From an uncultured virus (IMG/VR IMGVR_UViG_3300024303_004490) (Duplodnaviria; Heunggongvirae; Uroviricota; Caudoviricetes): a stretch of DNA of 20,000 bases. The stretch lies in the IMG/VR virus record IMGVR_UViG_3300024303_004490; one strand, written 5' to 3'. This document shows positions 9,108 through 19,189 of the stretch, in pieces. The translations under genes and the position numbers were made by a program. Below the pieces are notes generated by a model. It was not told where the DNA came from. It did no database searches and worked only from the letters and a program-made list of their open reading frames with translations. The stretch's first letter is position 1; each line of letters starts with the position of its first letter.

Positions 9108-10013
9108 ATGAAGTTAAAGGAATTATCTGCGGACGGAAAAATAGCATATTTGATTAAACCTATCTTAAAAGTTTTACAAGCAGCTGGCGGACAGCTTGAG
9201 CGTTCTGAAATTAAAGAAAGAATTGCCGATATGGATGACCAAATTGCTGACTATGCTGAACTTGAAAAGACATCCAAGAAAACAGGAAATACATACAAAG
9301 AATTCAATTTTAAATTCAACTTTGCGATTAAAGATTTGTATTTCATTGGATTATTAACCTATACAGATACTTCTCCCGTCACTTTGACTGAAAAAGGTTT
9401 ATATCTTGATGTTGATGCTCTTAATGTTCAAAAAGATGTTATTGAAGCGTCAAAGGTACACTGGGAAGAAATAAGCAAAAACAATAAGAAAAATAGGGTT
9501 GTTGATGTTTCAGATAGTGAAGAAGAAACTCAAGCGGAAGAAAAAATTAAGGACGATTTCAAGGAAATCCTTCTTGCGGCTATTTCAAAAATGTCTCCTA
9601 AGAAGTTTGAAGCTTTCTCAAGAGCGTTACTTAATAAAATGGGAGTCGAATTCACAGAGAAAGGTGTTCAAATCAGTAATGATGGCGGTATAGATGGATA
9701 TGGTTATCATATAGATGCAAATGATTTTAGAACAACAAGAGTTGTTATTCAGTGCAAAAGATACAATGTAGCACCCGTTAGAGAACCTGAAATCAATCAG
9801 TTCTTAGGGGCTATGAATAAATATCAAGCTGATTATGGTGTGTTTATTACAAATGGTAGATTTACAAATGCTGCAAGAATCGCCGCAAGAGAAGGTTCGC
9901 CAATTACTTTAATTGATGGCAATGAGCTTGTAAGACTTGTAAAGAGATATGAGCTTTACATAACGCCAGTACAAACTTATGTTTTAGATGATTTTTATAA
10001 TAGCGAAGAATAA
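9108..10013 (+). CDS. mrr: Mrr-family (type IV) restriction endonuclease
   Basis: N-terminal Mrr_N-like helical domain. Catalytic 'FEAFSRALLNKMG...DGGIDG...IQCKRY...GVFITNGRFT...ITLIDG'. Confidence 0.88.
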   Translation: MKLKELSADGKIAYLIKPILKVLQAAGGQLERSEIKERIADMDDQIADYAELEKTSKKTGNTYKEFNFKFNFAIKDLYFIGLLTYTDTSPVTLTEKGLYLDVDALNVQKDVIEASKVHWEEISKNNKKNRVVDVSDSEEETQAEEKIKDDFKEILLAAISKMSPKKFEAFSRALLNKMGVEFTEKGVQISNDGGIDGYGYHIDANDFRTTRVVIQCKRYNVAPVREPEINQFLGAMNKYQADYGVFITNGRFTNAARIAAREGSPITLIDGNELVRLVKRYELYITPVQTYVLDDFYNSEE

Positions 10014-10078
10014 TTTTTTTTATCATCAACTTCCGATAATTTTTATTATATAGAAGTTGTATTAAGGAGGGCGTAAAT

Positions 10079-12433
10079 ATGAGTCCCGTATTAAGCAAAA
10101 AACAAATGACAGAAGAAGATATTAAGCTTCAGTACATAACCCCAGCTATACAAAGCAAATGGGGTCTTGACAGTATGACTATGGAAACAAGAATCACCGA
10201 TGGTCGTATTAACCTTAAAGGTAATCTTGTTGCAAGAGAAAAGCCAAAAAAAGCTGACTATGTTTTGTATCTTAATAAGTACAAGCCCATTGCCATTGTT
10301 GAAGCAAAAGATAACAACCATTCTATCTCATATGGACTTCAGCAGGCTAAAACATATGCACAAATGCTTGATGTTCCCTTTGCTTACAGCTCAAACGGTG
10401 ACGGTTTTCAAGAATACGACTTTTTAACAGGAGTAGAGCGAGAACTCTCTATGGATGAGTTTCCCACAGCTGATGAATTAACAGCCCGTTGGGAAGCACA
10501 AGGCATAACTGATAATGAAAAGAAGGTAATTGCACAGCCTTACTATTCAAGTCAGAATACCTATGACCCTCGTTATTATCAGCGCAATGCAATTAACCGT
10601 ACTGTTGAGGCAATCGCAAAGGGTCAAGACCGTCTTTTGCTTGTTATGGCTACAGGCACGGGCAAAACATATACCGCTTTCCAGATTGTATATCGTCTGT
10701 TGAAGAGCAATCTCAAGAAAAAGGTATTATACCTTGCGGACAGAAACATTCTTGTTGACCAATCTATTCAGCAGGACTTTTCACCACTTGAAAAAACTAT
10801 ACATAAAATCAATTTTGCAAAAGATGACCCTGTTACAATAACTTCTCACGAAGTGTATTTTTCTCTTTATCAGCAGCTTGCCGGAAATAGCAATGATGAG
10901 GATGATGAAACTGGCGGCGAAGATGCTGTTGAGCGTTTTGCTAAGCTCTTCAATAAAGATTTCTTTGACCTCATTATAGTAGATGAGTGTCACAGAGGCT
11001 CGGCAAAAAAAGACAGCAACTGGCGTAAAATTCTTGAATATTTCTCATCAGCTACGCAGATTGGTATGACAGCAACACCAAAGGAAACAAAGTATATTTC
11101 GAACATTGATTACTTTGGTGAACCGATATACACCTACAGCCTTCGTGAAGGCATTGAAGACGGTTTCCTTGCACCGTTTAAAGTTATAAATATCAAAACA
11201 AACATCGGTGAGGGATGGAGACCTTATAAGGGGCAGCTTGATAAAAACGGCTATGAAATAGAAGATAAAATTTATACCAACAGTGATTTTGACTACAACA
11301 TCATTCTCGAAGACCGTACCTATGAGGTCGCAAGAGAAATTACTGAATATCTTAAGAGTACCGACAGAATGCAGAAAACCATTGTTTTCTGTGCAACAGA
11401 GGACCACGCTGAAAGAATGCGAATTGCCCTTAATAATCTTAATGCCGATATGTGCAAAGAGAATCCTGATTATGTTGTTCGTATCACGGGTTCTGACGCA
11501 TATGGAAAAAGCAAACTTGATTATTTTATATCTGTTTCAGCGCCATATCCTGTTATTGCAACAACATCAAAGTTGCTTTCCACAGGCGCGGATTGTAAGA
11601 TGACTAAACTTATTGTTCTTGATGAAATGATTAGTTCTATGACTGAATTCAAGCAGATTATAGGTCGTGGAACTCGTCTTCGTGAAAAAGAAGGTAAAAA
11701 TCATTTTGTTGTTATGGATTTCCGTAATGTAACACGTCTTTTTGCCGACCCTGATTGGGACGGCCCCATTGAGACGGTTGACGGATATGACCCTGACCAC
11801 AAGCCTGGTGGCGGAGGTTCAGGCAGCGGTGGAGGTCTTACTCCTCCGGTTGTTCCCACTGAAAAATATATAGTAGATGAAAGAGGCTGCAATGTTCAAA
11901 TTTTAGGTAAAACAGTTTCTGTTTACGATGCAAATGGAAAGCTTCTTCGTCAGGAAAGCATAGTTGACTATACTAAATCTAATATTCTTGGTAAATATGC
12001 TTCTCTTGATAATTTCATCCGTCAGTGGACCGCTGAGGAAAAGAAAGAGGCTATTAAGAACCTGCTTGCAGAACAAGGGATTGATTTGCAGCAGATGAAA
12101 GAAGAACAAGGAATGGAAGCTGTTGATGATTTCGACTTTATCTGCCATGTCGCTTATGATAAAAAGCCTCTTACACGCCGTGAGCGTGCTAACAATGTTA
12201 AGAAGCGTGATTTCTTAAGCAAATACAGTGGTGTAGCAAGAGAAGTCCTCGAAACCTTACTTGACAGATATATGAATACAGGCATTTACGAAATAGAAAA
12301 AACAGAGGTTCTTAAACTTGAAGACTTTAAAAAATATGGTAAACCTTCAAAAATCGCATCATATTTCGGTGGCAAAGACGGATATTTAAAAGCGATAAAA
12401 GAACTTGAAGAAGAATTATATAAGGTAGGTTAA
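10079..12433 (+). CDS. hsdR: Type I restriction enzyme R subunit (EcoAI/EcoEI-like)
   Basis: Nuclease motif 'ADYVL...IVEAK', Walker A 'MATGTGKT', 'DECH', 'GMTATP', 'QIIGRGTR'. EcoEI-type C-terminus. Confidence 0.96.
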   Translation: MSPVLSKKQMTEEDIKLQYITPAIQSKWGLDSMTMETRITDGRINLKGNLVAREKPKKADYVLYLNKYKPIAIVEAKDNNHSISYGLQQAKTYAQMLDVPFAYSSNGDGFQEYDFLTGVERELSMDEFPTADELTARWEAQGITDNEKKVIAQPYYSSQNTYDPRYYQRNAINRTVEAIAKGQDRLLLVMATGTGKTYTAFQIVYRLLKSNLKKKVLYLADRNILVDQSIQQDFSPLEKTIHKINFAKDDPVTITSHEVYFSLYQQLAGNSNDEDDETGGEDAVERFAKLFNKDFFDLIIVDECHRGSAKKDSNWRKILEYFSSATQIGMTATPKETKYISNIDYFGEPIYTYSLREGIEDGFLAPFKVINIKTNIGEGWRPYKGQLDKNGYEIEDKIYTNSDFDYNIILEDRTYEVAREITEYLKSTDRMQKTIVFCATEDHAERMRIALNNLNADMCKENPDYVVRITGSDAYGKSKLDYFISVSAPYPVIATTSKLLSTGADCKMTKLIVLDEMISSMTEFKQIIGRGTRLREKEGKNHFVVMDFRNVTRLFADPDWDGPIETVDGYDPDHKPGGGGSGSGGGLTPPVVPTEKYIVDERGCNVQILGKTVSVYDANGKLLRQESIVDYTKSNILGKYASLDNFIRQWTAEEKKEAIKNLLAEQGIDLQQMKEEQGMEAVDDFDFICHVAYDKKPLTRRERANNVKKRDFLSKYSGVAREVLETLLDRYMNTGIYEIEKTEVLKLEDFKKYGKPSKIASYFGGKDGYLKAIKELEEELYKVG

Positions 12434-12437
12434 AATA

Positions 12438-13916
12438 ATGAGCTTATCAAATTTTGTAAAAAGAATAAGAGATATAATGCGTAACGATGCCGGTATCAAC
12501 GGTGATGCACAGCGTATCGAACAGATGGCATGGATGCTTTTTTTAAAGGTTTATGACGCCAAAGAAAAAGACTGGGAATTTGACGACGAAGATTATGTAT
12601 CAATTATCCCCGAAGAATGTCGTTGGAGTAATTGGGCTGTCGATGACCGCTCTGGTAATGCAATGACAGGTGATAATCTTCTTAATTTTGTCAACAACAC
12701 TCTGTTTCCCACACTCAAGGGCTTATCTGTCAGCAAAGATACACCCATAAAAAAATCTATCGTTAAGACAACTTTTGAAGATGCAAACAACTATATGAAG
12801 GACGGTGTTCTTCTTCGTCAGGTTATCAATGTTATTGATGAGCTTGAGCTTGATGATTATGAGGAAAGCCACGCCTTCGGTGATATTTATGAAACTATAC
12901 TTAAAGAGCTTCAGAGTGCCGGTTCTTCAGGTGAGTTCTATACTCCTCGTGCTGTAACTGATTTTATGGCTAAAATGATTAAACCCCAAATCGGTGAAAA
13001 TGTCGCTGACTTCGCTTGCGGTACAGGTGGTTTCCTTACAAGCTGGCTCAAAGAACTTTCAGCTCATATTGAAACAACCGAAGACCAGGAAAAATACGAT
13101 AATTCAATTTACGGCATCGAAAAGAAGCAGTTCCCGTATATGCTTTGCATTACAAATATGCTTCTTCACGGTATTGATGTTCCGAAGATTTATCACGACA
13201 ACTCCTTGCTTCGTGATGTGCTTGACTACACAGAAGAAGACCAGTTTGAAGTTATTCTTATGAACCCTCCTTATGGTGGCAACGAAAAGAACGAAGTGAA
13301 AAATCACTTCCCGTCAGATCTTGCAAGCAGTGAAACTGCTGACCTTTTTATGTCAGTTATTATGTACAGACTCAAAAAGAATGGTCGTGCAGCTGTTATT
13401 CTTCCTGACGGTTTCCTTTTCGGTACAGATAATGCAAAAGTAGCTATCAAGAAAAAGCTTCTTTCAGAGTTTAATCTTCATACTGTTATCCGTATGCCTC
13501 ACAGCGTTTTTGCACCTTATACATCAATTACTACAAATATTCTTTTCTTTGACAGAACAGGCCCCACAACAGAAACTTGGTTCTACCGCCTTGATATGCC
13601 TGAAGGTTATAAAAACTTCTCAAAGACAAAGCCGATGGAACTCAAGCATTTTGCTCCTGCTATGGATTGGTGGGAAAATCGTGAAGAAATCGCAGTTGAT
13701 GGTTTTGACAAAGCAAAGAAATACACTGTTGAAGAGATTGCTGAAAAGAATTATAACATTGACCTTTGTGGTTATCCTCATGAGGAAGAAGAAATACTTC
13801 CTCCAAAAGAGCTCATTCAACAGTATCAGGCAAAAAGAGCAAGTCTTAATGCTGATATTGACCGCATTCTTGCACAGATTACTGATATTTTAGGAATCGA
13901 TATTACGGAGGAATAA
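12438..13916 (+). CDS. hsdM: Type I R-M N6-adenine methyltransferase M subunit
   Basis: 'GEFYTPR', SAM motif 'DFACGTGGFL', catalytic 'NPPY'. Confidence 0.96.
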   Translation: MSLSNFVKRIRDIMRNDAGINGDAQRIEQMAWMLFLKVYDAKEKDWEFDDEDYVSIIPEECRWSNWAVDDRSGNAMTGDNLLNFVNNTLFPTLKGLSVSKDTPIKKSIVKTTFEDANNYMKDGVLLRQVINVIDELELDDYEESHAFGDIYETILKELQSAGSSGEFYTPRAVTDFMAKMIKPQIGENVADFACGTGGFLTSWLKELSAHIETTEDQEKYDNSIYGIEKKQFPYMLCITNMLLHGIDVPKIYHDNSLLRDVLDYTEEDQFEVILMNPPYGGNEKNEVKNHFPSDLASSETADLFMSVIMYRLKKNGRAAVILPDGFLFGTDNAKVAIKKKLLSEFNLHTVIRMPHSVFAPYTSITTNILFFDRTGPTTETWFYRLDMPEGYKNFSKTKPMELKHFAPAMDWWENREEIAVDGFDKAKKYTVEEIAEKNYNIDLCGYPHEEEEILPPKELIQQYQAKRASLNADIDRILAQITDILGIDITEE

Positions 13917-13918
13917 TA

Positions 13919-15487
13919 ATGACCGGACAACAGCTTAAAAATTCTATATTACAAATGGCTGTTCAGGGCAAACTTGTTCCGCAGGACCCGAATGATGAAC
14001 CTGCTTCTGTTCTTTTGGAACGCATAAGAGCAGAAAAGGAAGCCTTGATAAAAGCCGGTAAAATCAAGAAAGAAAAGAATCCTTCTGTAATATTCCGTGG
14101 TGCCGATAATTTGCCTTATGAGAAAGTCGGCAAAAACGAGCCTGTATGCATTGCTGATGAGGTGCCTTTTGATATCCCTGATAGCTGGGAGTGGGTGCGA
14201 TTAGGCAGTTTGTTAAGCGTTATAAGTGATGGCACGCATAAAACACCGCATTATGTACCAGATGGTGTTCCATTTCTTTCAGTTCAAAATATTTCGAGTG
14301 GGAAGTTTGATTTCACAAAAATCAAATACATAACACAAGAGGAACATCAAAAATTGATTGAACGAATCAAACCACAAAAAGACGATATATTGTTTTGCCG
14401 AATAGGCACATTAGGAAAAGCTATTAAATGCACTCTTGATTTTGAATTTAGCATTTTCGTAAGTTTAGGGTTGTTGAGACCAGTAGATATTTCAATAACT
14501 GACTATTTAGTATTTGCAATAAACTCCCCGTTAGGCGATAAATGGATTCACGACAACAAAGTCGGCGGTGGTACTCATACTTATAAAATTAATTTAATCG
14601 ATATACCGAGAATGTTAATTCCCGTTCCTCCTTTAGAAGAACAAAAACGTATTTTTGATAAATTATCAGTATTTGAACCACTTACCGAAGAATACACAAC
14701 CAAAGAAAATACATTATCCATCCTTAATGCGTCGTTTAGTGATATTCTCAAAAAATCAATACTTCAAGAAGCGGTTCAAGGAAAACTTGTTCCTCAAGAT
14801 GAAAATGACGAACCCGCTTCAGTGTTACTTGAGCGTATAAGAGCTGAAAAACAAGCACTGATTAAGGCAGGTAAAATTAAGCGAGATAAGAACGAATCCG
14901 TCATTTTCAGAAGGGATAATTCTCATTATGAGAAGTTGAACGGAATTGAACGTTGTATCGACGATGAAATACCATTCGAAATTCCTGAAAGTTGGCAATG
15001 GGAACGATGGGGCAACATATCGCAAAGCATACAGTATGGCTATAATGCACCCGCAAAAAGTGATGGAAAAATCAAGATGGTACGCATCAGTGACATACAT
15101 AATAATACTGTTAAATGGGATTCTGTTCCGTTCTGCGATATTGCCGAAGAGGATATAGAAACTTACCTTTTAAAACCTAATGATATATTGTTTGCCAGAA
15201 CAGGCGGCACGGTTGGTAAATCATATTTAGTAACAGAAATTCTTGAAGATGCTATATATGCTGGATACTTAATCAGAACCCGTTATAGTAATGAACTTGT
15301 TCCAAAATACTTAAAGTACTTTATGGAAAGTGAGTTGTATTGGTCTCAATTGCGTTCAGGCACTATTGCCACAGCTCAGCCAAATTGCAATGGTCAAACA
15401 TTATCAAGAATGTTGTTGCCTATACCACCAAAAGCGGAACAAGAGCGAATCACGCAAATGATTGATATTCTTTATACAAAGCTATAA
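13919..15487 (+). CDS. hsdS: Type I R-M specificity subunit, expressed allele (TRD1.1+TRD2.1)
   Basis: GGAGG SD, 2 nt after the hsdM stop. Two TRDs, each preceded by a conserved 'QGKLVPQD...PASVLLERIRAEK...PFxIPxSW' block and ending in 'PxPPxxEQxRI'. Confidence 0.95.
   Translation: MTGQQLKNSILQMAVQGKLVPQDPNDEPASVLLERIRAEKEALIKAGKIKKEKNPSVIFRGADNLPYEKVGKNEPVCIADEVPFDIPDSWEWVRLGSLLSVISDGTHKTPHYVPDGVPFLSVQNISSGKFDFTKIKYITQEEHQKLIERIKPQKDDILFCRIGTLGKAIKCTLDFEFSIFVSLGLLRPVDISITDYLVFAINSPLGDKWIHDNKVGGGTHTYKINLIDIPRMLIPVPPLEEQKRIFDKLSVFEPLTEEYTTKENTLSILNASFSDILKKSILQEAVQGKLVPQDENDEPASVLLERIRAEKQALIKAGKIKRDKNESVIFRRDNSHYEKLNGIERCIDDEIPFEIPESWQWERWGNISQSIQYGYNAPAKSDGKIKMVRISDIHNNTVKWDSVPFCDIAEEDIETYLLKPNDILFARTGGTVGKSYLVTEILEDAIYAGYLIRTRYSNELVPKYLKYFMESELYWSQLRSGTIATAQPNCNGQTLSRMLLPIPPKAEQERITQMIDILYTKL
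14099..14126 (+). repeat. Recombination site A1 (core TTTGCC)
   Basis: GGTGCCGATAA-TTTGCC-TTATGAGAAAG. 17 bp (14106-14122) is a perfect inverted repeat of 18345-18361. Confidence 0.75.
14894..14973 (+). repeat. Recombination site B1 (core TTCTCA) and flanking identity
   Basis: AGAAGGGATAA-TTCTCA-TTATGAGAAGT (14909-14936). 14920-14973 is a perfect 54-bp inverted repeat of 16912-16965, and 14894-14931 is a perfect 38-bp inverted repeat of 17539-17576. Confidence 0.8.
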
Positions 15488-15491
15488 TTTC

Positions 15492-15522
15492 AGGCATACA
15501 CTTCATTGAGAGGTGTATGCCT
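15492..15522. terminator. Probable bidirectional terminator between convergent hsdS and recombinase
   Basis: AGGCATACACTTC-attga-GAGGTGTATGCCT, a 13-bp stem with one G-U pair. Confidence 0.65.
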
Positions 15523-15528
15523 TTAATA

Positions 15529-16338
15529 TTACCAATCGACTATTTTATCAACGATTTCTCTTTGCTCGGTTGCTGTTTTGCGAAGGTATATTCGTGTTGT
15601 TTCAATGCTTTCATGTCCCATAAGGTCAGCAAGAAAAGCAATATCGTTACAGCGGTCAAGAAAGCTTTTTGCAAACCTGTGGCGAAATGAATGAGGATAA
15701 ACGACAGCAGGGTCAATACCATATCTCACAGCTAATTTTTTGAGTTGCCCGGATATACCACGGGTGGTAATTCTGTCACCATACTTGTTCAAAAAAATGA
15801 AGCCACTTTCCTGATGCTTTTCAGCTAACCATGAAAGGGCTTCTTCTTTTAAAGATTGCGGTATGTATATTCGCCTTAACTTGCCGCCTTTTGAGTACAA
15901 ATCCAAGTGACCGAGCTTGATATGTTCAACCTTGATTTGTATAAGCTCACTGACTCTTGCGCCTGTCGCTGCCAAAAAGCGAATAACAAAATACCAAAAC
16001 ATTTCATCATCTTTTTTAAGGCTGTTTTTGAAATATTCATAGTCAGCCTCACTGATGACATTTTCAAGAAAAGCCTTTTGTTGTACTCTTACAAAGGGCA
16101 TTTTCCATTTTTCTTTACCCACACTTTCCAAGTAGCAGTTGATTGCTCTGAGCCTTAAGTTCACCGTTTTCGGCTTGTAGCTTTCAATAAGCCACACCTT
16201 GTACTCCCGTAGGTTTTTCTTTGTGACTTCATCGTACTGTTCGCTGAATTGTTTTATTGCAAACATATACGATGAAATCGTGTTTTCTGAAAGGTTTGTA
16301 CCTCTCAAGTGTCTTTCAAATTTGTTTTTATCTATCAT
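15529..16338 (-). CDS. Tyrosine recombinase (hsdS invertase)
   Basis: Catalytic set R ('TGARVSEL'), K ('SKGGK'), HxxR ('HSFRH'), H ('MGH'), Y ('TTRIY'). SD AAGGAGGT. Lies inside the hsdS array. Confidence 0.93.
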   Translation of the reverse strand: MIDKNKFERHLRGTNLSENTISSYMFAIKQFSEQYDEVTKKNLREYKVWLIESYKPKTVNLRLRAINCYLESVGKEKWKMPFVRVQQKAFLENVISEADYEYFKNSLKKDDEMFWYFVIRFLAATGARVSELIQIKVEHIKLGHLDLYSKGGKLRRIYIPQSLKEEALSWLAEKHQESGFIFLNKYGDRITTRGISGQLKKLAVRYGIDPAVVYPHSFRHRFAKSFLDRCNDIAFLADLMGHESIETTRIYLRKTATEQREIVDKIVDW

Positions 16339-16379
16339 AGCGAAAGACCTCCTTTCGCTATAATTATACAGATTGAAAG

Positions 16380-16965
16380 TTATAATTGCTCGATGTACGG
16401 CAGCAAAGAATTATATGCAGCAACGATACGGTGTTGTTCTTTGAGGGGCGGTAATGCAATTAGTAATTTTTCAATTCTTGCAATTGCTAATTTAGGCTGA
16501 CCAACCTTAGTTGTAGCTTCGGCGATTTGAGCCTGAATTAAGGGAGATTGTAATTCTTTAATAAGCCAATCTTGATTTATTATTGTAAAAACAAGCCTAT
16601 CGGCATTCTCTGTTAAATTAGCACCATCAAGCTCTCTTGGGATTTTACCTATTCTGCCGATAGTACCAGCTACAGTTATAAATACATCTTCTTTTTTTAT
16701 GATGTATTTTGAGATGCTTGGATAAATGTCTGTCGGCACATATTGTAAATCTTCTGTTGAGACCCAACCGTCCTTCATATCAGAGACACGAATATATATG
16801 TGTCCCGTGTTATCTTTGATAAGCTTTCTGCCTGCAGGAATACGTTTACCACCTAAAACCGAAGTGATCGTTCCGAGCCTGCACCAACACCAATTTTCAG
16901 GAATCTCAAACGGTATTTCATCGTCGATACAACGTTCAATTCCGTTCAACTTCTCATAATGAGAA
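16380..16965 (-). pseudogene. hsdS: Silent hsdS' cassette (single TRD2.2)
   Basis: In-frame homology to hsdS begins abruptly at SHYEKLNGIERCIDDEIPFEIP. No N-terminal conserved region and no SD. Intact TRD up to the stop. Confidence 0.88.
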
Positions 16966-16976
16966 CTTTACAAAGC
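16912..16976 (-). repeat. Recombination site B2 (core TTCTCA, degenerate left arm)
   Basis: On the - strand GCTTTGTAAAG-TTCTCA-TTATGAGAAGT (16976-16949). The 54-bp identity to B1 starts exactly at the core. Confidence 0.75.
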
Positions 16977-18361
16977 TTCGATAGTTGACAATACTTTGTT
17001 TGCAAAATCAACAATCCGTTGTTGCTCACTCATCGGAGGAACGGGGATTAACATTTCTGCAAGTTGATTTAGATAAAATCCTTTTTGCGCCGTTCCTGTT
17101 GCTTCCTTAATTGCTTTGTTTTGAAAATATGCGGAGTCAAATACAAGTTTTAAATAATAATTATAAATTAGTGTTGTTATAACAGAAACACTACGTTGGA
17201 AACAAACGTTATATCCACCTTCGTAAACACAACTTCTTCCTAACGACCCAACAGAGGTAAAAAACAAATCGCCAGTAGTAGCATTGGTACGTAAGTTTTC
17301 TTGTTCAAAAACTTCTTTTGATAAATATCTAACCTTATTTAATTCAACTAACCTATTGTTGTTTATGTTAGTAGACGAAGCCATAATATATTGAGTTTCA
17401 AAAGTTTCACCTTTAGGAGGATTGTGGTCTCCGTCCACAAGCTTTGTGCAAATGCTTTTCAATCTAACCCATTCCCAAGAATTAGGTATCTCAAATGGTA
17501 TTTCATCATCAATGCAAACCACTTCAGAACCACGCTTTTCATAATGAGAATTATCCCTTCTGAAAATGACGGATTCATTCTTATCTTTTTTTATTTTGCC
17601 TGCCTTGATTAGTGCTTGTTTTTCTGCTCTGATTCTCTCAAGCAATACTGAAGCAGGCTCATCATTTTCATCTTGGGGTACAAGTTTGCCTTGAACCGCT
17701 TCTTGGAGAATTGATTTCTTTAGTTTTTCCGGGAATGACAAGTTTAATATTTTGATTTCCTGCTCTAATTCAGAATAATTACTCAAAACTGGAAGAAGCT
17801 CTTTTAGTTTTGAACAAATCCTATCTTGTTCATTCAGGGGAGGCAAAGGAATCCATAAGCTATCCAAACTGTCAGAATTTAATGTGTTACCTTTAATAGC
17901 CGTTTTTGTTTCTCCCAACTGTGACAATAACGGCATTACAGCAAATAAATATGAAGTCATAATTTTGTTATCGTCAACAAAAGGATAAATCGATATTATT
18001 GCTTCATTGTGAAATGCATCGATATCCAATATAGAGACTTTACCTACTGTAAGTTTGAAACTCATTAAAAGAGTTCCTGCTGGACTTTTTCTCCCTTTAA
18101 AACTAACATCGGCAGCATATGCACTAACGCCTTCTTTAGTTTCGGAAATATGTCCATCGGAAACCATATCGGCTATTGAAACCCAATTATGTATGGGGTT
18201 GTTCCAATATTCTGACTCTTTCCGTGGAGGCGTTTTGCCCATAGAATAATTTACTACATTGCAAAATCTAACCCATTCCCATGTGTCAGGTATCTCAAAT
18301 GGCACCTCATCAGCAATGCACACAGGCGCATTTTTGCCGACCTGCTCATAAGGCAAATTAT
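16968..18361 (-). pseudogene. hsdS: Silent hsdS'' cassette (TRD1.2+TRD2.3, 5'-truncated)
   Basis: Homology to hsdS begins at NLPYE. Lacks the first ~63 codons and an SD. Two intact TRDs that differ from the expressed ones. Confidence 0.88.
17534..17576 (-). repeat. Recombination site B3 (core TTCTCA)
   Basis: On the - strand AGAAGGGATAA-TTCTCA-TTATGAAAAGC (17561-17534). 38-bp identity to B1. Confidence 0.78.
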
Positions 18362-18368
18362 AGGAGGT
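18341..18368 (-). repeat. Recombination site A2 (core TTTGCC)
   Basis: On the - strand ACCTCCTATAA-TTTGCC-TTATGAGCAGG. Marks the outer end of hsdS homology. Confidence 0.75.
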
Positions 18369-18372
18369 TGAC

Positions 18373-18729
18373 TTAACAAAAACTACTTACTATAAGATTC
18401 AACTCTGCCCCCATTCCTCCGTCTCTACCAATAATAAAATCGGCTTCATTATAACACTCGACATAATTCTTAAAATCAATACACTTCCTATCACAATAGT
18501 ACCATTTACCTTGAAACCAATCTGGTAGCAAGGTGAAAAAATTTTCTGCATCCCCATCTACATATTCGTATAGTTCAACTATCCTTTCGGCGTCAAGAAC
18601 TTCAATTTCAAAACACCCATTTCCGTTATCAGCATCGGGGTTGTAATAAATAATATAAATCTGATGCTCTGCACCATGTATTTTACCGGGCAGAAAGACT
18701 GCATCATAGCCATCAAGGTAGCTTACCAT
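18373..18729 (-). CDS. Hypothetical acidic protein (118 aa)
   Basis: ATG with AGGAGG SD. No family recognised. Confidence 0.65.
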   Translation of the reverse strand: MVSYLDGYDAVFLPGKIHGAEHQIYIIYYNPDADNGNGCFEIEVLDAERIVELYEYVDGDAENFFTLLPDWFQGKWYYCDRKCIDFKNYVECYNEADFIIGRDGGMGAELNLIVSSFC

Positions 18730-18868: not shown

Positions 18869-19189
18869 ATGGATAAAGTTGAACTTGGTAAAAAGATAAA
18901 AGAAGCAAGAATCGGAAAAGGATACACGCAAGAAGTGCTTGCTGAAAAATCAGGTATCGGGCCTATTTATCTTGGTGAAATTGAGCGTGGGTTAAAGATG
19001 CCGAGCCTAAAAGTATTTATAAGAATTGTAGAGTCTCTTGATATTTCTGCAGACTACATTCTCCGTGATGAGTTGCCTTCAGGTAAGGATTATGTTTTTG
19101 ATGAACTGACCGAAAAACTGTCGGAGCTTACTCCAAAACAAAGAAAAGCGGCTGCAGCCATTCTTGATGCTTTTATAGCTACTTTATAA
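18869..19189 (+). CDS. XRE-family HTH transcriptional regulator
   Basis: 'LGKKIKEARIGKGYTQEVLAEKSGIGPIYLGEIERGLKMPSL...LDISADYIL'. GGAGGTG SD. Confidence 0.9.
   Translation: MDKVELGKKIKEARIGKGYTQEVLAEKSGIGPIYLGEIERGLKMPSLKVFIRIVESLDISADYILRDELPSGKDYVFDELTEKLSELTPKQRKAAAAILDAFIATL

Follow-up and report, generated by a model that had tools for sequence, protein, structure and literature searches.

Regarding the inversion of hsdS genes in Type I restriction-modification (R-M) systems, the closest described examples are the SpnIII/cod/ivr system of Streptococcus pneumoniae, with its tyrosine recombinase PsrA (CreX, IvrR), and the Sag515I system of S. agalactiae 515 (SaiA, clade 1). The locus compared with them here lies in a stretch of 20,000 nt (the window) from an uncultured virus record (IMG/VR IMGVR_UViG_3300024303_004490), which corresponds to the minus strand of G000:C21:54409-74408, and Pfam matches together with the layout of open reading frames (ORFs) identify it as an hsdR-hsdM-hsdS operon accompanied by partial hsdS copies on the opposite strand. 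With SpnIII it shares the hsdRMS operon, the silent opposite-strand hsdS and the internal tyrosine recombinase, while its target recognition domains (TRDs) and the centres of its sites are different ones and its host is a gut Clostridia metagenome-assembled genome (MAG). The class of hsdS inversion systems is well described and the locus is an ordinary member of this known kind; as in other hsdS invertons, repeat search and alignment place inverted repeats where TRD1 and TRD2 begin.

The three classes of inverted repeat in pneumococcus share ATTATGGGAA, the counterpart of which in the window is TTATGAGAA, and in both systems the 5-6 bp upstream of the common sequence differ between the TRD1 and the TRD2 repeats (PMC6620402, PMC7096588). 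According to the pneumococcal work, the 5 bp preceding the common 10 bp are of importance to one repeat class but not to the other (De Ste Croix 2019, PMC6620402), and PsrA needs the short repeat together with its upstream 6 bp, the mechanism being stated as unknown in that report (PMC7096588). In S. agalactiae 515, inversion takes place at CTCTCCTTATGGGAA, ...GATGATAACTCTCCTTAT and GAAACCTTATGAGAAGTT (Huang 2020, PMC7672463), and the sequenced borders read ...GATGATAA-CTCTCC-TTAT, CTCTCC-TTATGGGAA and GAAACC-TTATGAGAAGTT (PMC7672463). The window has in common with Sag515I the order ATAA / 6 bp / TTATG, TRD2 and TRD1 having different centres; in the main text of that report the sites are described as plain inverted repeats, with mention of neither Xer nor a consensus (PMC7672463).

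Five sites of 28 bp are present in the window, at the positions and with the 6-bp cores (here called centres) that an earlier note on this DNA had assigned to them. Both sites of the TRD1 type have the centre TTTGCC: A1 (14099-14126, plus strand) reads GGTGCCGATAA-TTTGCC-TTATGAGAAAG with its centre at 14110-14115, and A2 (18341-18368, minus strand) reads ACCTCCTATAA-TTTGCC-TTATGAGCAGG in hsdS sense. The three sites of the TRD2 type have the centre TTCTCA, namely B1 (14909-14936, plus strand; AGAAGGGATAA-TTCTCA-TTATGAGAAGT, centre at 14920-14925) and, on the minus strand and given in hsdS sense, B2 (16949-16976; GCTTTGTAAAG-TTCTCA-TTATGAGAAGT) and B3 (17534-17561; AGAAGGGATAA-TTCTCA-TTATGAAAAGC). 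The pattern ATAA-N6-TTATGA, claimed for four sites, is found in exactly these four, the exception being B2, which has no ATAA, and translation yields the peptides DNLPYE and DNSHYE that the same note had read from the two centres.

Longer inverted repeats begin or end at these sites. The A1/A2 repeat (114 nt, 82%) extends rightward from ATAA, with exact identity over only 17 bp (14106-14122); the B1/B3 repeat (189 nt, 87%) extends leftward and ends at TTATGA, as does its exact run of 38 bp; and the B1/B2 repeat (76 nt, 95%) extends rightward from TTCTCA. Because the B1/B3 and B1/B2 homologies run in opposite directions, the sequence common to B1, B2 and B3 is just TTCTCATTATGA. The left arm of A2, ACCTCCTATAA, is non-coding and lies at the right edge of the conserved module, the homology to relatives stopping near 18364, and stop codons upstream of A2 precede the silent hsdS copy. 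The left arm of B2 consists of the C-terminal codons and the stop of the preceding cassette (peptide ...IEAL*SSHYEK), the centre and right arm being kept. The centre and right arm of B1 also form a perfect 15-bp palindrome, TTCTCAT-T-ATGAGAA (14920-14934), nothing alike being seen in the A sites.

The explanation that we hold to be probable is that the local, Xer-like recombinase inverts hsdS at these arm/6-bp centre/arm sites and that the centre addresses the partners. The recombinase (15529-16338) would bind the arms of the five sites, located where inverted-repeat homology starts or ends; A1xA2 inversion would swap the entire TRD1-TRD2 block and B1xB2 or B1xB3 inversion TRD2 alone, and new HsdS specificities would be the outcome. 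The arms would be variants of a generic ACTTCYSATAA, the class of a site being set by its centre (TTTGCC for TRD1, TTCTCA for TRD2). Strand exchange by tyrosine recombinases takes place across the centre, which has to match, so that only in-register partners should recombine productively. We infer which protein binds, where cleavage falls and that a centre mismatch blocks TRD1xTRD2 exchange; the anatomy, a site grammar kept throughout the family, constraint on the DNA, the joint occurrence with the recombinase and the differing arrangements of relatives were observed.

A common grammar of the sites is found across 147 related loci. A scan with the recombinase as query gave 80 loci (recombinase 71-99% identical) from Lachnospiraceae, Ruminococcaceae, Acutalibacteraceae, Erysipelotrichaceae, Enterococcus cecorum, Gastranaerophilales, several Pasteurellaceae and a Methanimicrococcus MAG, and a scan of metagenomes with the silent hsdS copy gave 66 loci that were fetched without reference to the recombinase; a near-identical locus in another arrangement was not found in this metagenome scan, the closest being 64-79%. 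TRD starts were recognized by the motif PF.IP..W (197 in the genome set, 181 in the metagenome set), and the 187 and 158 sites with an in-frame TAYGAR anchor upstream were kept, 10 and 23 without the anchor being dropped. Classing was by strand order and not by sequence: T1 sites have another site 650-950 nt downstream, T2 sites a neighbour 450-950 nt upstream, and the remaining sites were left unclassed and uncounted. The logo from homologous hsdS genes that the earlier note had proposed shows the arm, a variable 6-bp centre and then TTATGAGAA recurring across the related loci. Centres of the same class are identical within a locus in 78/78 cases (23/23 and 30/30 loci of the genome set, 8/8 and 17/17 of the metagenome set), and T1 and T2 centres are disjoint in 76/76 (40/40 and 36/36), with 17 distinct (T1,T2) combinations and a minimum Hamming distance of 2. 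Partner pairs share at least the centre and TTATGA (85/85 in the genome set, 45/46 in the metagenome set), some of them, in L041, L062 and L124, just 12 bp, which supports a site built as arm, 6-bp centre and arm. Hybrid sites at L047 5396, L052 5390 and L084 5350 combine a TTCTGATAA-like non-coding left arm with the T2 centre TTCTCA; these agree with arms that are generic and centres that are class-specific, or with an earlier T1-T2 deletion.

The flanks of the centre are constrained at the DNA level. While the centre varies among relatives, the flanks are fixed, synonymous positions included: Tyr at the sites is encoded by TAT in all 177 unique contexts of the genome set and in 137/139 of the metagenome set, against 31 TAT and 20 TAC (genome set) and 19 and 22 (metagenome set) for flanking Tyr codons; the Asp codon is GAT in 113/113, against a background of 400 GAT and 150 GAC; and the Glu codon is GAG in 150/177, although the background is mostly GAA. 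Constraint is also seen outside coding sequence, in the left flanks of silent T1 sites (19 unique), which hold little information between -30 and -10 (0.1-0.8 bit per position) before TTCTGATAA sets in with 1.7, 1.1, 1.5, 1.0, 0.8, 2, 2, 2 and 2 bits. Eight of the nine positions of TTCTGATAA agree with the right arm TTATGAGAA taken as reverse complement, the non-coding left arms converging on TTCYGATAA, the mirror of the right arm.

Regarding inversion itself, alternative arrangements were observed among the relatives, and their comparison indicates that flipping occurs in this family. In nine comparable loci among the first 12 listed, hsdM and the recombinase are opposed, as in the window, in five and co-directional in four. 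Loci L041 and L051 differ from each other as predicted for a B1xB3 inversion; in L115, the recombinase of which is 99.3% identical, a homologue of the window's silent TRD2'' stands in the expressed gene, as predicted for a B-type inversion; and TRD1 has been swapped between L080 and L082, the point of exchange lying in a 26-bp stretch that includes the site. Two scaffold ends of an isolate of Amedibacillus dolichus (L106 3461-7759 and L107 4635-8933) carry an identical 4299-nt block that begins at a T1 site and has differing left flanks, which suggests two arrangements within a single culture, or else an artefact of assembly.

Several points weigh against a recombinase acting at two-armed sites addressed by their centres. 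In pneumococcus, long repeats of 85 bp and 333 bp invert without CreX, RecA, XerD or XerS (PMC6620402), and by analogy inversion at B1/B3 and B1/B2 may take place without the recombinase here as well. The related loci are not independent, which limits the centre counts, and the identity of partner centres could stem from gene conversion instead of selection. When centres were shuffled among loci, 46% of trials gave zero T1/T2 coincidences, so that the lack of any such coincidence is statistically uninformative; the proposal of the earlier note that the core serves as an address code is consistent with the identity of partner centres in 78/78 cases and is unproven. Left arms of the B2 type are unconserved across relatives, and so are the silent left arms in a sister subfamily (L153-L178) with a recombinase that is ~60% identical, the left arm GACAA and the T2 centres CAAGTA or CAGGTA; a strict two-arm model is therefore not universal. 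Finally, the data for the window strain, Logan contigs of four metagenomes from samples that hold many related hsdS genes, show no inversion junction directly and, among the joints listed, no clean opposite-strand joint at the sites. Contigs of three runs are interrupted at the sites, each of the five being affected; those of X1 and X2 stop precisely at the two limits of the 17-bp A run, a stretch below the word length of the assembler, and one contig in X6 spans A2. The breaks at the A run suggest a branch, and related strains in the sample could also cause them. Same-strand joints at the borders of B2 and B3 (15523>16947, 16370>17533 and 16976>17535) were seen in two or three metagenomes each, at about one third of the local depth and with short sides of 19-27 nt.

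Some of these points would also be expected if the difference between centres were a by-product of coding divergence (Leu-Pro versus Ser-His), the partner being picked by flanking homology or arm quality and mainly the centre-proximal right arm being read. The centre does cover two variable residues, TTATGA is common to all pairs besides the centre, the left arms of the B2 type and of the distant subfamily are the unconserved ones, the shuffles are as readily accommodated, and asymmetric shufflon sites, in which one arm is dispensable, provide a parallel. Set against this are synonymous centre variants that co-change in both partners of a locus (TTTACC in L042, TACCCC in L049, TACGCC in L071 and CCTGCC in L075), single 6-mers (TTCCTA, TTCTTA) that serve as the T1 centre in some loci and as the T2 centre in others, and the requirement for centre identity that is established for tyrosine recombinases generally. 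On balance we regard a coding by-product as an unlikely source of the two centres.

It is less likely still that most switching is independent of the recombinase and driven by homology along the long repeats, the motifs only marking the ends of conserved coding segments. The length and identity of the B repeats (189 nt at 87%, 76 nt at 95%) and the pneumococcal 85-bp and 333-bp repeats mentioned above would agree with this, but A1 and A2 share only 17 exact bp within 82% homology, some partner pairs have the 12 bp of L041, L062 and L124 and nothing more, the non-coding arm and synonymous positions are conserved, and the 15-bp pneumococcal repeat strictly requires CreX (PMC6620402).

The recombinase that would act at the sites in the favoured explanation is a protein of 269 aa (15529..16338, minus strand) convergent with hsdS, with matches to PF00589 (1.2e-26; 93.9 bits against a cut-off of 27.1) and SAM_4. 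Its motifs ARVSEL, GGK, HSFRH, GH and RIY align with XerA and XerD (catalytic R, K, HxxR, H and Y), its best PDB matches are XerA (4a8e, 5.5e-21; 5hxy), XerD (1a0p, 2.5e-11) and XerH, and its best NCBIfam models stay below the equivalog cut-offs (XerC 105.9/335, XerD 94.2/330, XerA_Arch 144.2/220 bits), by which matches it is classed as a Xer-like enzyme and not as a XerC/XerD orthologue. An enzyme on the L104 contig is 75% identical to it, and the protein of that relative is given at 58.9% to the query invertase in Table S6 of the S. agalactiae report (PMC7672463); the locus is probably a PsrA/CreX-type (SpnIII/cod-like) hsdS inversion switch, its kinship to PsrA being an indirect one that would run via this relative. 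The family is very large, 7999/7999 scored protein clusters reaching E 1e-20, few of which are named (as tyrosine-type recombinase/integrase). In many of these clusters, some with hundreds to thousands of members, the longest contig is ~2 kb, the size of the B1-B2 segment; assemblies therefore habitually break at the repeats.

Sites and local recombinase occur together. A homologue of the recombinase (59-99% identical) is present in 28/31 metagenome loci with an inverted same-centre pair, the other three being contigs or fetched stretches of 4.0-8.6 kb, and the two travel together through Clostridia, Erysipelotrichaceae, Enterococcus, Melainabacteria, Pasteurellaceae and an archaeon, hosts between which the resident Xer systems must be very different. 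In pneumococcus, inversion is unchanged in xerD, xerS, SPD_0921 and recA mutants (PMC6620402, PMC4948785), and inversion at the conserved 10 bp that the three repeats have in common strictly depends on CreX (PMC6620402).

The likeness of the sites to dif was compared with three published seeds, among them those of E. coli and B. subtilis as printed in Kono 2011 (PMC3025954), with which the dif sequences given in the earlier note agree. The match counts of that note were reproduced, at 9/11 and 8/11 for the arms of A1 against E. coli dif and 9/11 for the left arm of A2 against B. subtilis dif. A count of 17/22 arm positions against E. coli dif is reached by only 3 of ~6.3 million genomic 28-mers, A1 included, while the other four sites have 11-15/22 against the three seeds. 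In the case of A1 the count stands and the outer GGTGC had been over-read, since it belongs to R-G-A codons and is not kept in non-coding copies. The dif/Xer-like layout itself, 11-bp arm, 6-bp centre and 11-bp arm with inner ATAA/TTATG, was recovered in 4/5 sites and in the family logo, and it is further supported because the nearest solved relatives of the recombinase are XerA, XerD and XerH. The 3.17-Mb genome has 33 occurrences of ATAA-N6-TTATGA, counted over both strands, and four sites of this 4.3-kb locus fit the pattern, these four being paralogous repeat ends and not independent matches.

Like XerCD/dif, the locus has 11-6-11 sites with inner ATAA/TTATG, an enzyme nearest to XerA/XerD/XerH and an arm resembling the left arm of B. 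subtilis dif. Unlike XerCD/dif, it has five or six sites within an R-M module, a single dedicated recombinase, and inversion instead of dimer resolution; we know of no FtsK link for an hsdS recombinase. Where dif is a single copy at the terminus, one locus here holds five or six copies, and the cumulative GC skew of contig C21 climbs steadily through the window with no skew switch there. A dif of the host was not found in a genome scan with the three seeds, the best matches reaching 20-21/28 and not being palindromic. The best palindromic candidate, at C22:36078, was rejected, as it was found in 0/60 same-family genomes at up to 3 mismatches. With up to 4 mismatches allowed, a genome scan with the consensus TTCTGATAA-N6-TTATGAGAA gave 78 matches and proved too permissive to be of use.

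The earlier note had also suggested that host Xer recombinases (XerC/XerD or CodV/RipX type) act alongside or instead of the local enzyme, the sites being dif mimics. The 17/22 arm positions of A1 are in keeping with this, as is the family arm ACTTCC(G/T)ATAA, which matches the left arm of B. subtilis dif at 9-10/11 (among 6.3 million host-genome 11-mers, 434 reach 9/11 and 18 reach 10/11), and in Ureaplasma, binding of host RipX, XerC and CodV to specific DNA at phase-variable inverted repeats is the subject of a report (PMC3599477). Yet the same site sequence is found in at least four phyla and an archaeon, always with a local recombinase that is itself the Xer-like protein, the pneumococcal xerD and xerS mutants are without effect (PMC6620402, PMC4948785), the window is not at a GC-skew switch, and the three-seed scan of the genome offered no host dif for comparison. 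Because the sites accompany the local recombinase in such varied hosts and the pneumococcal xer mutants are unaffected, host Xer action lacks support and is very improbable.

A sixth dif-like site, termed site X, lies upstream of hsdR (10029..10056, plus strand; ACTTCCGATAA-TTTTTA-TTATATAGAAG) and matches B. subtilis dif at 20/28 positions. It stands 23 nt before the start of hsdR (10079..12433, plus strand; 784 aa, with ResIII at 7e-44, EcoEI_R_C at 1.9e-33 and HSDR_N), at the left edge of the conserved module, the homology to relatives beginning at 10015-10024. There are 28 copies of its 11-mer ACTTCC(G/T)ATAA in the 1.35 Mb of related loci, against a chance estimate of ~1.3, and 23/28 of these occurrences lie 20-50 nt upstream of an ORF of 766-803 aa (hsdR), the L153-L178 subfamily included. 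Site X is a near-palindrome in the window and in L036 a perfect 10-bp palindrome with a 7-nt spacer, and L071 and L118 have the hsdS-site arm TTATGAGAA on its right side. The arm of site X agrees with the T2 right arm, taken as reverse complement, at 9/11 positions and with the A2 left arm at 10/11, by which all arms look like variants of one 11-bp arm. Site X overlaps the -10 of a promoter-like TTATCA-N18-TATTAT, by consensus match the likely hsdR promoter. It is not the dif of the host, since the window is not at a GC-skew switch, and from its sequence and position it may be a recombinase-binding operator or the end of the module. A wider scheme, in which one Xer-derived recombinase uses a generic 11-bp arm and the 6-bp centre as a natural address and would also sit on site X, throttling restriction during switching, is put forward tentatively and is doubtful at present.

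Regarding the remaining genes, mrr, hsdR, hsdM, hsdS, the recombinase and the silent cassettes all lie within 9108-18368. Downstream of hsdR are hsdM (12438..13916, plus strand; 492 aa, N6_Mtase 3.2e-70, HsdM_N) and the expressed hsdS (13919..15487, plus strand; 522 aa, Methylase_S in two stretches), which has the order N-terminal conserved region, TRD1, central conserved region and TRD2 and contains a direct repeat, D1 (13934-14095 / 14747-14908, 72%). On the minus strand, the silent TRD2 cassette (TRD2', 16380..16949; Methylase_S 4.6e-11) and the silent hsdS' (16968..18356; Methylase_S 2.1e-25, two stretches) follow the recombinase, hsdS' having TRD1', the central region and TRD2'' and no N-terminal region. 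Between the convergent hsdS and recombinase genes, 15487-15527 holds an 18-nt inverted repeat with a 5-nt gap (83% complementary) that is probably a two-way terminator. Outside the conserved module are an ORF of 118 aa without a Pfam match (18373-18729, minus strand) and an XRE-type helix-turn-helix protein (18869-19189, plus strand). The GC content is 37.9% in the window and 45.9% in the genome. Relatives of the recombinase in the family of the host, found in 41/200 family genomes, are only 30-36% identical, so that the module is foreign to the host lineage.

Among other recombination systems, the R64 shufflon has one tyrosine recombinase, Rci, and many coding-embedded sfx sites with one arm conserved and the other loose; to our knowledge its sites are not split into non-crossing classes. 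Heterospecific lox and FRT sites are man-made spacer variants, in which a mismatch of the centre can make sites orthogonal. The window sites resemble the former in being many, embedded in coding sequence and conserved in one arm, and the latter in their centre variants. Within the literature searched, the arm/centre/arm reading, the address idea and likewise site X seem to be unpublished: a term search of hsdS inversion reports gave no "Xer" in the text available of PMC7672463, PMC7096588 and PMC9881135, and among the best 15 of 209 full-text matches for hsdS with dif or Xer, Xer stands beside hsdS only as an xerS knock-out.

In many host-associated bacteria, methylomes and phage resistance are reprogrammed by phase-variable Type I systems, of which the pneumococcal one is the best studied. 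From the 147 loci compared here a testable grammar for their hsdS sites emerges, in which the arm is generic, the 6-bp centre varies freely but agrees between partners, and TTATGAG is invariant. This grammar offers an explanation for why the repeat classes do not cross, in which a centre mismatch would act as the block. The conserved site X at the likely hsdR promoter is a new lead, which may show regulation of restriction or movement of the module between phyla. If true, the centre address would be a natural counterpart of heterospecific lox sites, with non-crossing exchange classes inside a gene.

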